Positions 38,072-61,343 of a stretch of DNA of 64,000 nucleotides are shown here, piece after piece (within the stretch, counting starts at the first letter, position 1; the number at the start of each line of letters is the position of its first letter). The notes under the pieces are model-generated. The model was not told where the DNA came from and did not search any database. It worked only from the letters and a program-made list of their open reading frames with translations. This stretch comes from Candidatus Woesearchaeota archaeon (GTDB lineage: Archaea > Nanobdellota > Nanobdellia > Woesearchaeales > 0-14-0-80-44-23). A program made the position numbers and the translations under genes. The DNA lies in contig JAVZCZ010000001.1 of NCBI GenBank assembly GCA_038874135.1, forward strand, positions 352,001-416,000, given 5' to 3'.

Positions 38072-38164
38072 AATACTTAAATTTTAAAAATAGTAAAATA
38101 TTTAAATATCAAATATTATTTAGATTAAAAAAATTATAAAAGTATTTTTACAGCGTCGAGAAGA

Positions 38165-38338
38165 ATGAAGAAAGTTAATATTGGATTGAGCGATGAAATT
38201 CATGCGCAGGCAAAAATAATCTCAGTTCTAAAAAAGATAACACTTCAGGAATACCTTCAAGACGCGATTGAAAGTGCGGTGAAAAAGGACAGGGCAATAC
38301 TTGGGAAGGTGCGAGGTGAGAAAGAAGAAATAAGCTGA
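38165..38338 (+). CDS. Small ribbon-helix-helix-like protein (57 aa, not in the ORF track)
   Basis: MKKVNIGLSDEIHAQAKIISVLKKITLQEYLQDAIESAVKKD...: alternating beta strand followed by two helices; TATA-like TTATAAA just upstream. Confidence 0.75.
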   Translation: MKKVNIGLSDEIHAQAKIISVLKKITLQEYLQDAIESAVKKDRAILGKVRGEKEEIS

Positions 38339-38347
38339 ATCATGCTC

Positions 38348-38444
38348 CAAGGGGCTGTGCCAGTAGGTATTGAAGTCAAAGACTTCTCAACTGATGTTGA
38401 CACCCCCAATCTCGACATCAAATACCTAGCAAAACAGCCCCTTG
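38348..38444 (+). ncRNA. Putative structured RNA (three-way junction)
   Basis: Four nested stems: CAAGGGGCTGT/ACAGCCCCTTG, TAGGTATT/AATACCTA, GAAGTC/GACTTC, TGATGTTGA/TCGACATCA (one G-U pair on the + strand), followed by CCCCCTTTT. Confidence 0.65.
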
Positions 38445-38526
38445 CCCCCTTTTAATTCTAAAAAATTTAAAATTAGAAGAAAAAAATTATAAACTGGTCC
38501 AGATAAACCATTCTTTGGGAGTTAGT

Positions 38527-39261
38527 ATGAAGGAAAGTTATCTTGATGAAATCATAATCGGATTATACTCTGAAAAACCTTGTGAAGAGCTCAGGCGAGA
38601 GTTCATAGAAAGAAAACATGTGATAGGAATTGCCGGCAATATAGGCGTAGGAAAATCCACCCTTGCAGAGATCCTATCAAAGGTTCTAGAATGCCCGGTT
38701 TACAAAGAATTGGACGAACCAAATCCTTACCTTGAAAGATTTTACAAGAATCCAAAAGAATGGGCTTACAAGAGCCAGATGTTCTTCTTAGAAGCCAAAG
38801 CAAGAAAGATGAAACAAATTCAAGAGTCAGAAAAATCTGCAATAATTGACAGGACAATCTATGAAGACATATACATATTTGCAAGGGCACAACTTGAACT
38901 CGGCAACATGACAAGAGAAGAATGGCGAAGTTACGAGGAAAGAAAGGATGAACTGCTAAAAGGCATACAATACCCTGAAATGATAATATACCTCAGGGGA
39001 AATGCTCAGCCAACGCTCTGGGAAAGAATAAACAGCAGAAAGAGGCCTGAAGAGGTGAATGGCACTTCCTTGGATCAGGAATATCTATACTTCTTAGGCG
39101 GGCTTTATGAGGTTTGGGTGCACTCTTCAGAGCTGAATAGCAAAACAGAGGTCAGAGTAATAGAAACTGACGATTTCAGAAAGCAGCCTCAAGCCGATGA
39201 GTCAATAAAAAATGTTGCATACAAAACAGTAATTGCGTTACACACTTTTTTTGTTAAATGA
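38527..39261 (+). CDS. Deoxynucleoside kinase (dNK/dCK family)
   Basis: 'IAGNIGVGKST', 'NPYLERFY', 'SQMFFL', 'IIDRTIYED..IFA'. Confidence 0.93.
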   Translation: MKESYLDEIIIGLYSEKPCEELRREFIERKHVIGIAGNIGVGKSTLAEILSKVLECPVYKELDEPNPYLERFYKNPKEWAYKSQMFFLEAKARKMKQIQESEKSAIIDRTIYEDIYIFARAQLELGNMTREEWRSYEERKDELLKGIQYPEMIIYLRGNAQPTLWERINSRKRPEEVNGTSLDQEYLYFLGGLYEVWVHSSELNSKTEVRVIETDDFRKQPQADESIKNVAYKTVIALHTFFVK

Positions 39262-53953: not shown

Positions 53954-54060
53954 TTGTATGTGGGTGTTTTTATCCCGTTGACACCTCGTTGAAACTTTTT
54001 TTATTTGTATGTTAATATGGTATGCTAAGCTTATTTAAATATTTAACTTTTTGAAAAAAA

Positions 54061-59534: not shown

Positions 59535-60803
59535 TTAGAGGCGCATCATTATCTGCCCGCCCTTAAATATTCTGATCTGGCCTCCTGACTGGCTAAGTAC
59601 CACTGCAATGCTTTTTGTGAGCTTTGTTATTGCTGCGCAGCTCCTATGTCTCGTTCCCAGCCCGCTGAGCGCGTCTGATATCTCCTTGTCTACATTTACA
59701 TTTAGGTAGGTGCCTGCTGAAACTATCGTTCCATTCTTATCCACTATGAAGACTCCGTCCAGCTGTGCAAAGCTCTTAATAGTATCTCTAAGGGATGGGT
59801 CTGTTATCTTCTTTTGCTCGTCAGGTAGAGATTGGAATGGGTTTATTATCATCTGCTTAGTATATTGGGCTATCTCATCCTTATCCCCTATAATGAAGGC
59901 AGTGCCTATCGGCTTTCCTTCAAAGCCCTCTCTACCTATATCCACTGCAATTCCTATTACTGCTTCCAGGATGTCAGGGCTGACTATATCAGTAAGATGA
60001 GTCATGCTTATGTTGAAGAATATGTTGTCCACATCAAATATGAAGAGCATTCCCTTGTAGCCCAAGCCGATGCTCTCATTTTCTACACAGACCACCCTGT
60101 CGCCCTTCTTTATGTACTCACGCTTTATCGCCTCTGTTAGAAGCTCCTTTACAGGTATTATGGAGCCCTGCAGCATCTTTTTCATTTTTGTCCTATAAGC
60201 CACTTTTTTGTATGAGTTGTTTCTTCCCTTCCTGAATATGACCACTTCAACATCTAAGCAGTTGTCTTCAATTCCTCCTGAGAGGTCCGGCTTTCTCTCA
60301 ACTGAAACTATGCAGTTTGCCCCGACATCCTTTCCAATATTTGTTGCGGCCAGGCCTATTACTTCGTCTATGTTTTTTATCTTGTTGTTTATCAGGTCCT
60401 CGCTTACTGAAGATACGCCTATCTCGTACTGTTCTCCTCCTGAGGATCCAACTGTGGCTAAGCATTCTGCACTTGAGGTTTGAGCTGCGGTTTGTTGCTG
60501 AAGACCTTCTAAGCTAGCATCCTGTTTTTGTTGCGGCTCTGACTCTTGAGATTGTGCCTGTACCATCTCATTTTGAGTTGTTGAAAATTGTGCAGTTGTT
60601 CTTTTTTCCTGCTCTGTACTTGGAGAAAGGTACATTACTAGTTTTCTCTGATCATAAAGACGTTTTACAGCATCCACTGCCATTCCGAATATTGAGTTTT
60701 TGGTGTAAACAACAGGATCTGCCGAATCGCTCCTTTCAGAGGGCTGTTTTAAAAGTTTAAGCCCCTTAGGGATATTTGACTCTGCCTTTTTTAATTTCAG
60801 CAT
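59535..60803 (-). CDS. dacZ: Diadenylate cyclase (DacZ-like, DisA_N domain) with a disordered N-terminal extension
   Basis: 'GREGFEGKPIGTAF', 'FAQLDGVF', 'GLGTRHR', 'LSQSGG'; start placed at the ATG at 60803 after a GGGGG RBS. Confidence 0.88.
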   Translation of the reverse strand: MLKLKKAESNIPKGLKLLKQPSERSDSADPVVYTKNSIFGMAVDAVKRLYDQRKLVMYLSPSTEQEKRTTAQFSTTQNEMVQAQSQESEPQQKQDASLEGLQQQTAAQTSSAECLATVGSSGGEQYEIGVSSVSEDLINNKIKNIDEVIGLAATNIGKDVGANCIVSVERKPDLSGGIEDNCLDVEVVIFRKGRNNSYKKVAYRTKMKKMLQGSIIPVKELLTEAIKREYIKKGDRVVCVENESIGLGYKGMLFIFDVDNIFFNISMTHLTDIVSPDILEAVIGIAVDIGREGFEGKPIGTAFIIGDKDEIAQYTKQMIINPFQSLPDEQKKITDPSLRDTIKSFAQLDGVFIVDKNGTIVSAGTYLNVNVDKEISDALSGLGTRHRSCAAITKLTKSIAVVLSQSGGQIRIFKGGQIMMRL

Positions 60804-60856
60804 CTTTTCCCCCAATCTCGTTTTGTTCAAATGTGAATTTTGTGAGCGTGAAAATG

Positions 60857-60913
60857 ATTTGGCTCCCTAATTGTGGGGTGGGGTGGAGCAAAGAAGCAGT
60901 TAGGGAGCCAAAT
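60857..60913. other. 14-bp perfect-stem hairpin upstream of dacZ
   Basis: ATTTGGCTCCCTAA/TTAGGGAGCCAAAT with a 29-nt loop that is G-rich on + and C-rich on -. Confidence 0.65.
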
Positions 60914-60929
60914 TCAACATGCTTCAATG

Positions 60930-61343
60930 CTATTTTTCAGGCTTTATCTGGTGAGCAGGCCTGTCAACCTCTCTCAGCCACATCAGGCCTATGGAAACCA
61001 TCTCGTTGTTGAACCTTTTTGATATTCTGTATGTTTTCTTGTAAAGGTCGTAGTCTATCATTCCCATACTCTTCATTGGAGTAAGTATCCTATCGTAAAA
61101 CTGTCTCTTGTTGTATGAGACCTTTACCTTTTTTCCTGCGAATGGGGGCTCTTTTATTGTAGTGATGAGCTGTCCCTCGTGGAGCTTTGTGGCGAACATT
61201 GACATTTCTGTTTTGCCAATCTCGCCGCCGTTATCCTTCATGTATTCTATTATGAGTTTTGCCACGATTACCTGCTGCTTTGTGGCAAATATTATCTCAT
61301 ATATGTCTTCCGGAAGGTTGAACCTATCAAATAATATGACCAT
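60930..61343 (-). CDS. Conserved hypothetical protein (possible winged helix)
   Basis: 137-aa ORF with a TATA box ~25 nt upstream; 'FYDRILTPMKSMGMIDYD..KKTYRIS'. Confidence 0.75.
   Translation of the reverse strand: MVILFDRFNLPEDIYEIIFATKQQVIVAKLIIEYMKDNGGEIGKTEMSMFATKLHEGQLITTIKEPPFAGKKVKVSYNKRQFYDRILTPMKSMGMIDYDLYKKTYRISKRFNNEMVSIGLMWLREVDRPAHQIKPEK

Follow-up and report, generated by a model that had tools for sequence, protein, structure and literature searches.

The locus described herein raises the question of whether a compact, strongly folded element of about 97 nt, located behind the gene for a small RHH-like protein in a Woesearchaeota archaeon, is a regulatory RNA and, if so, which gene is regulated. 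The element lies in a window of 64,000 nt, i.e. the whole stretch of DNA that was analyzed, which belongs to a complete genome of 909,956 bp with 41% G+C (G000). A first-pass annotation had proposed that the apical loop of this element pairs with the ribosome-binding site of dacZ, the diadenylate cyclase gene. On the basis of genome comparisons, we propose that the RNA regulates dacZ through base pairing, a reading to which we assign a probability of roughly 0.6. The coordinates of the features discussed are collected in Table 1.

Table 1. Features of the window that bear on the proposed regulation of dacZ.
Feature	Position	Strand	Basis
RHH-like gene, 57 aa, directly upstream of the RNA	38165..38338	+	ORF
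Structured RNA (~97 nt) closed by stem P1, with P2 across a short internal loop and, inside P2, the variable hairpin P3 and the hairpin P4	38348..38444	+	fold z -7.8
Stem P1, 11 bp	38348-38358 with 38434-38444	+	MFE of 38340-38455
Stem P2, 8 bp	38364-38371 with 38421-38428	+	MFE of 38340-38455
Stem P3, 6 bp	38372-38377 with 38381-38386	+	MFE of 38340-38455
Hairpin P4, 9-bp stem including one U-G	38392-38400 with 38412-38420 (hairpin 38392..38420)	+	MFE; proposed seed hairpin
P4 apical loop CACCCCCAAUC, 11 nt	38401-38411	+	MFE of 38340-38455
12 nt (9 of the loop, 3 of the stem) complementary to the dacZ leader in G000	38403..38414	+	exact sequence match
CCCCC-TTTT tract after P1, likely archaeal oligo-T termination site	38445..38453	+	T-run in all four lineages
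Promoter-like element of dNK, AAAAR-GTTATAAAC; here TTATAAAC	38487-38494	+	after the T-run
dacZ, diadenylate cyclase, 422 aa from the conserved ATG, C-terminal DAC domain	59535..60803	-	PF02457, E 9.5e-21
Proposed target CGAGAUUGGGGG in the dacZ 5' leader; covers the G-rich SD and lies 5 nt upstream of the start codon (60803)	60809..60820	-	complement of the 12-mer

A structured RNA behind a small gene

First, the element is very probably a real structured noncoding RNA. As the first-pass annotation had described, it starts 10 nt past the TGA of the RHH-like gene, and the four nested stems of 11, 8, 6 and 9 bp were reproduced exactly in the MFE structure of the + strand. The folding energy of this strand (38340-38455) was -44.7 kcal/mol (z -7.8), a stability that none of 200 shuffled sequences equaled, and the MFE structure accounted for 42% of the ensemble, whereas the fold of the - strand was poorer (z -3.75) with a diffuse ensemble. 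The preference for the + strand, originally read from a G-U pair, was confirmed both by these z values and by the G-U pairs in P4 and P1, which are valid on the + strand alone. The G+C content of the 38348-38444 island is 50%, and a 200-bp tract of approximately 5% G+C precedes the RHH-like ORF.

The RNA family had not been recognized from the sequence, and the subsequent Rfam check matched no family either. At the gathering threshold, the scan of the window returned just four tRNAs, none of which was at the element, and a permissive scan (38100-38600, E<=10) returned only two noise matches, beside the element and on the opposite strand; no Rfam family fits, including the c-di-AMP riboswitch ydaO/kimA, the C/D and H/ACA sRNAs and the Hgc RNAs. 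Individual classes were rejected on their own grounds: ARAGORN predicts no tRNA at the element; the genome's 5S rRNA, SRP RNA and RNase P RNA were found above threshold at other loci; the single UGAUGU that might suggest a box C/D guide RNA is buried within the P4 stem, and the terminal boxes are absent; and the ACA of an H/ACA guide RNA does not occur 3' of P1. The element is not a repeat or a MITE, because it is single-copy in the complete 910-kb genome, and each relative likewise has one copy, always behind the RHH gene. A cis-acting leader or riboswitch of the downstream gene dNK, which encodes a deoxynucleoside kinase (PF01712), was also rejected, since the promoter-like element of dNK stands after the T-run: in all lineages, the T-run followed by a BRE/TATA-like AAAARGTTATAAAC separates the RNA from dNK.

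The RHH-like gene and transcription of the RNA

The 57-aa gene upstream of the RNA is conserved, with 71-89% amino-acid identity among six sequences, and a TATA-like AAAATATTTAAATA is retained approximately 80 nt upstream of it in all lineages. The window's own protein gave no above-threshold Pfam or NCBIfam match; sub-threshold scores for Antitox_RHH, ParG and CcdA were observed for its close homologs, and the protein and its relatives repeatedly gave weak matches to ParG, ParD, Antitox_RHH, CcdA and HicB. Among the distant relatives, the cut-offs for ParG and HicB were passed by P0140 only. In other words, a conserved 57-aa gene linked to the RNA is upheld, but its assignment to the RHH class derives from weak profile matches. 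The AlphaFold monomer model, a single long helix, was uninformative, and the family comprised 93 representative clusters among 1.8 billion proteins. In two distant relatives, P0126 and P0135, the gene overlaps a large ORF (830-951 aa) and is not followed by the RNA. As a side observation, such distant RHH homologs (L067, L068) overlap the start of this ORF, which has no Pfam domains, and the pair forms a conserved two-gene module on other archaeal metagenome contigs.

The gene and the RNA are probably co-transcribed, as judged from the arrangement of the locus. No convincing promoter specific to the RNA was found: none was observed in G001, a relative of the same genus, and there is no room for one in G000 or G001. 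In two further relatives, G002 and G003, a 50-nt spacer before the RNA contains a weak TATA-like GATTAAT, located 33 and 19 nt from P1, respectively; this spacing is inconsistent between the two genomes, and a promoter for the RNA alone was considered unconvincing. A sigma-70/terminator scan predicted no terminator, although the models of that scan are not applicable to archaea.

Distribution and conservation of the RNA

Second, the RNA was found in a narrow group of relatives. A blastn search of 40 relatives detected the element in the three other species of the family alone (G001, 91% identical, G002 and G003), a covariance model applied to 150 genomes of the order gave matches confined to the family, and metagenome and protein-based look-ups added three near variants (L040, L044 and L048). 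Pattern scans of genomes and metagenomes retrieved near-identical variants only. A search for homologs of the RHH-like protein returned five close clusters, with the RNA present in all five. The proposed link between the RNA and the RHH gene was thereby borne out, the element always standing behind the same 57-aa gene in the order nitroreductase(-) / RHH(+) / RNA / dNK(+). Two apparent matches elsewhere were dismissed as chance, namely a 28-bit covariance-model match in G038, inside an AbrB-like ORF (KIDTPNLD), and a 20-mer match in L038, inside a sulfatase-like ORF. A G002-type genome record (CAYQKJ010000052.1, L034) was deposited as 'uncultured Methanosarcinales archaeon', and is probably mislabelled, because the Woesearchaeal RHH-RNA locus is present in it.

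Between lineages, the RNA was 77-99% identical at the nucleotide level, the RHH coding sequence 60-93% and the spacer that follows the RNA 53-65%, and the 33-nt apical hairpin P4 was 97-100% identical across all seven sequences. The sequence of P1 is replaced in G002 and G003 (CUGGAAAGRGAGG...) with its pairing retained, and in P2 of G003 a U-A pair is swapped for C-G. When six distinct sequences were aligned on the model, 95.5% of the cells were paired, compared with 38.5-48% in slid controls, and four pairs had changed on both sides; with about six distinct sequences and two to three effective lineages, this covariation is modest and concerns P1 and P2 only. The comparison of homologous RHH 3' regions thus agrees with the annotated structure in that P1 and P2 keep their pairing through compensatory changes and P4 is kept, but P3 does not form a helix in every relative. 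The P4 loop is unpaired in each of the individual folds. Taken as a sequence comparison, these results indicate that the RNA is under purifying selection and is confined to one family of Woesearchaeales (DPANN).

The same changes bear on whether the region might instead encode a small protein, since a 37-aa ORF (38342-38455) containing DVDTPNLDIK has a frame that is open over the conserved core in all seven sequences. However, the frame contains no start codon in G003 and L048, no SD precedes it, the peptide flanks are unrelated between clades, and the changes in P1 and P2 preserve base pairs and not amino acids. The same 17-20-mers also occur in unrelated ORFs (G038, L038) by chance, as a common DTPNLD coding motif. 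A small protein is therefore an extremely improbable explanation.

Complementarity between the P4 loop and the dacZ leader

Third, all four genomes of the family have a dacZ leader complementary to the loop of P4. The reported recurrence of the 12-mer CCCCCAATCTCG of the element in front of dacZ was confirmed, but the match is not meaningful when taken alone, because 12-mers of the element recur at about the number expected by chance: 13 recurrences were counted genome-wide against an expectation of approximately 9 (86 words x 1.8 Mb / 4^12), and a third copy of the 12-mer itself lies at G000:97826. Judged from the sequence comparison, the weight of the dacZ match comes from its position and its conservation. 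The start codon of dacZ aligns across four orthologs, the leader reads CGAGAUUGGGGG-AAAAG-AUG in the sense of the mRNA, and no significant structure of their own was found in the dacZ leaders. Complementarity to the loop and the P4 3' arm extends over 12, 11, 11+6 and 25/26 nt in the four genomes; the motif ends approximately 5-8 nt ahead of the dacZ ATG in every one of them and spans -6 to about -30. Specifically, G000 has CGAGATTGGGGG followed by 5 nt and the ATG; G001 has GAGATTGGGGG 5 nt ahead of the ATG at the ribosome-binding site; and G002 has GGTGTC-AGATTGGGGGT, also 5 nt ahead of the ATG, with 11 bp to the loop and 6 bp to the P4 3' arm across a one-nt bulge. Each genome has between one and three exact copies of the 11-mer, of which one is always the sRNA gene, and the motif is absent from three outgroup dacZ leaders (L051/52, L053-55 and L056). 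One of these outgroups, L053-55, retains the gene upstream of dacZ and its hairpin. The complementarity of the loop to the dacZ ribosome-binding site, which the first-pass annotation had noticed in a single genome, is thus confirmed and conserved in 4/4 genomes of the family.

The G003 site was first met blind, in the initial blastn search (E 7e-4), before the neighboring dacZ was known. Its leader sequence, AGGCATTTGATGTCGAGATaGGGGG, which ends 8 nt ahead of the ATG, is complementary over 25/26 nt to the loop, the P4 3' arm and the P2 3' strand. This leader carries a G that matches the G003-specific AAAUGCCU of the sRNA, at which the G000 sRNA has AAAUACCU, and a C facing the G of the U-G wobble in P4; therefore, it represents a complement of the 3' arm and not a copy of the 5' arm. 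Such a duplex would be predicted to out-compete the intramolecular helix of P4. True covariation between the loop and its target, which had been suggested as a check, was not observed among the relatives, because both are invariant in the core. The single compensatory-like change lies in the extended G003 duplex, and recent local duplication explains it equally well.

These observations also lend themselves to a different reading, in which the RNA is functional but in another role, as a protein-binding or stabilizing 3' element of the RHH mRNA or as a regulator of other targets, and the dacZ match is a decaying relic of a duplication combined with a conserved SD. The 25-nt match in G003 does look like shared descent, traces of a longer match remain in the G000 leader (ATTTGA...CGAGATTGGGGG), GGGGG is an SD by itself, and better hybridization sites than dacZ exist genome-wide. 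However, the six non-SD bases GAGATT, or AGATT, are kept in four lineages in which the dacZ leaders cannot otherwise be aligned, and they are missing in the outgroup leaders. Moreover, the portion that survives in all lineages is exactly the single-stranded loop with 1-3 bases of the stem, as expected of a seed. We therefore consider a role unrelated to dacZ unlikely.

A further possibility is that the shared motif is a double-stranded DNA operator, recognized at dacZ and at the RHH 3' end by a transcription factor such as the RHH protein, with no pairing between RNAs. Orientation is irrelevant to a DNA site, a short leader would place the site over the transcription start region, and CdrS, a small RHH protein of Haloferax volcanii, binds upstream of dacZ (PMC8406309). 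Against these points, the motif is neither a repeat nor a palindrome, unlike the usual RHH operators; at the RHH locus it falls exactly within the apical loop of an RNA structure that covaries; and it would have no obvious role behind the stop codon of the regulator's own gene. A DNA operator is thus regarded as very unlikely, and pairing of the RNA with the dacZ leader remains our preferred reading. The link between a small RHH protein and dacZ in Haloferax also counts for this preferred reading, to which it lends biological sense.

Genome-wide background and other candidate targets

The rank of dacZ among all possible targets in G000 differed between the searches. With the loop as the query against the start regions of ~881 crude gene calls, dacZ was second, approximately 5 sd from the mean, but it was not the top match; in an unrestricted RNAduplex scan, the dacZ site was approximately 23rd of 227,480 windows. 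Full-length RNAduplex comparisons of the sRNA with 90-nt leaders produced artificial long-range loops and were discarded. GGGGTG and GGGGG(UG) are frequent SD variants in this genome, so part of the dacZ match is simply a conserved SD, and the 5' part of the loop, ACACCCCC, resembles the 16S anti-SD tail GAUCACCUCCU. Because the loop acts like an anti-SD, several ribosome-binding sites score well.

It is therefore conceivable that the RNA is a general mimic of the anti-SD, whose loop titrates GGGGGUG-type ribosome-binding sites, with dacZ as one member of a broad regulon. Besides the likeness to the 16S tail, complementarity of 8-14 nt to the 5' half of the loop is present in several start regions, i.e. 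those of a 242-aa gene (G000:175031), a 342-aa gene (G000:742964) and a 132-aa paralog of the protein encoded upstream of dacZ, and the GGGGGTGT of this paralog is conserved in 4/4 genomes. Nevertheless, candidate sites shrink to the SD in relatives. The top-ranked 242-aa gene, with GAGGTTGGGGGTGT, and the 342-aa gene are both reduced there to a bare SD and were rejected, and the conservation at the 132-aa paralog is indistinguishable from that of a plain SD, as is the regulon as a whole. Among the candidates checked in relatives, the non-SD part of the complementarity, i.e. the extra part that matches AAUCUC of the loop, is kept at dacZ only. A broad regulon of this kind appears quite unlikely, and dacZ remains the preferred target.

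Two other sites were considered and rejected. A site inside a signal-peptidase-like gene is partly kept, within the genus only. The second target that had been suggested, kamA, did not hold: the 9-mer GTTGACACC is indeed present at 53977-53985, but the kamA ATG is more than 110 nt away, and the absence of the 9-mer from 3/3 orthologous leaders identifies it as a chance match.

Proposed mechanism

Herein, we propose the following sequence of events for the regulation of dacZ. Transcription of the RHH gene would read into the RNA, which would constitute the 3' end of that mRNA or be a product of its processing, and would terminate at the oligo-T tract. P1 and P2 might serve as a scaffold on which the P4 hairpin is displayed, and its exposed, anti-SD-like, C-rich loop would nucleate pairing with GAGAUUGGGGG in the dacZ leader. 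Pairing could then spread into the P4 3' arm and, in one lineage, into P2. Because the duplex would cover the SD, 5-7 nt ahead of the AUG, binding of the 30S subunit should be blocked, resulting in less diadenylate cyclase and less c-di-AMP. Since the loop matches the dacZ ribosome-binding site in every relative examined, the RNA would most likely shut off dacZ translation; repression is read from the position of the site, and activation or an effect on mRNA stability are the alternatives. Transcription of the RNA, its ends, its physical pairing with dacZ and the direction of the effect are all predictions from sequence.

The near-invariance of both arms of P4 may have one linked reason. The 3' arm would be constrained by the leader, which is visible in G002 and G003 and was probably so in their ancestor, and the 5' arm would be constrained because it pairs with the 3' arm. 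Why the 5' arm does not vary is thus explained indirectly only, and pairing beyond the loop requires melting of the stable P4 stem, which counts against the extended duplex. We also considered that one transcript might yield both a DNA-binding RHH protein and a 3'UTR-derived sRNA, acting on dacZ at the promoter, as CdrS does, and at the ribosome-binding site, respectively. This two-layer arrangement is speculative and unlikely, but if true it would provide coherent transcriptional and translational control of c-di-AMP in a minimal DPANN cell.

Comparison with known systems

Several known regulators share parts of this arrangement, and we read the element as a new RNA family that would use a known mechanism, namely masking of the SD by base pairing. 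C-rich loops on stable hairpins that contact a G-rich SD, loop first, are well known from bacterial, multi-target sRNAs of Firmicutes, including the hairpins of S. aureus RNAIII and RsaE/RoxS. The likeness to the RNA described here consists in the C-rich apical loop on a stable hairpin and its complementarity to a G-rich SD; there is no relation in sequence, and here a single target is conserved and the loop adds the specific AAUCUC extension. Bacterial sRNAs derived from 3'UTRs, such as CpxQ, DapZ and SroC, are comparable in location, as the present RNA begins just past a stop codon (10 nt in G000), uses the same terminator as the gene and has no convincing promoter of its own in G000 and G001. 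Unlike these sRNAs, it is preceded in G002 and G003 by the 50-nt spacer with the weak TATA-like motif, the archaeal processing enzymes would differ, and an origin from the 3'UTR is in this case inferred.

Within the archaea, masking of the SD by an sRNA has been established for sRNA162 of Methanosarcina mazei (PMC3510493), the closest mechanistic precedent, in which a base-pairing sRNA likewise covers the ribosome-binding site of a trans-encoded mRNA. The two RNAs are unrelated in sequence and structure. sRNA162 is encoded by an intergenic gene of its own, has two targeting domains and acts on the mRNA of a transcription factor, whereas the RNA described here stands behind the RHH gene, is probably part of its 3'UTR, occurs in DPANN archaea and has a second-messenger synthase as its proposed target. 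The parallel with CdrS is of a different kind, both systems tying a small RHH protein to the control of a diadenylate cyclase gene. CdrS is a DNA-binding factor that acts upstream of the dacZ promoter and is encoded beside ftsZ2 (PMC8406309), whereas the link in the present locus is an RNA behind the gene of an RHH-like protein that lacks an above-threshold NCBIfam or Pfam match.

As far as PMC8406309 reports, citing PMC6741144, dacZ is essential and its overexpression lethal in H. volcanii. By that account, c-di-AMP synthesis is essential and dose-sensitive in the sole archaeon studied. The literature library searched contained neither a report of a regulatory sRNA from DPANN archaea nor one, for any organism, of a diadenylate cyclase controlled by an sRNA. 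The proposal is a hypothesis that can be tested by mutation, since the RNA (97 nt), its seed (11 nt) and the site in the leader are all specified, and heterologous reporters are feasible even though the hosts are uncultured. If correct, it would suggest that riboregulation is kept even in a genome of 0.9 Mb.

The dacZ protein and its neighborhood

Several minor observations concern dacZ and the genes around it. The DacZ proteins of this family are 420-470 aa long, compared with ~277 aa for most Woesearchaeota homologs, and carry a low-complexity, Q/S/T-rich N-terminal extension of 130-170 aa; a DacZ protein search of 30 relatives (E<=1e-20) gave matches in the family only. Directly upstream of dacZ, every family genome encodes a 137-aa protein (MVILFDRFNLPEDIYEIIF...; 60930-61343, - strand) that belongs to no Pfam family, and the gene also occurs in the outgroup lineage L053-55, which has a similarly placed small gene. 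The 132-aa paralog of this protein (G000:C1:106845-107243, - strand) has a strong conserved promoter in addition to its conserved SD GGGGGTGT.

Between the 137-aa gene and dacZ, a hairpin of 13-14 bp (UUUGGCUCCCUAA...UUAGGGAGCCAAA) with a C-rich loop (..CUCCACCCCACCCCACAA) was observed at 60857-60913 on the - strand, with a T-rich run behind it. The hairpin is kept in a G001-like genome (L049) and in G003 (L016), and in the CG08 outgroup (L053) it has a different loop. It may terminate transcription of the gene upstream of dacZ, and its C-rich loop could reach the dacZ SD in cis. In G003, dacZ is preceded by a 320-nt spacer in which a T-run follows an additional strong hairpin (GGGCAGAGCAGG...CUGCUCUGCC; L016:1253-1400), and in G001, GAGATTGGGGG is duplicated approximately 90 nt upstream, adjoining a CUCCCC/GGGGAU hairpin. 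The architecture of the dacZ leader therefore differs widely between lineages. At the RNA locus itself, a 347-aa DHH/DHHA1-type protein is encoded after dNK in the G001-like and L044-like lineages (L041-L047) and is missing there in G000; DHH-DHHA1 enzymes include the c-di-AMP and pApA phosphodiesterases.
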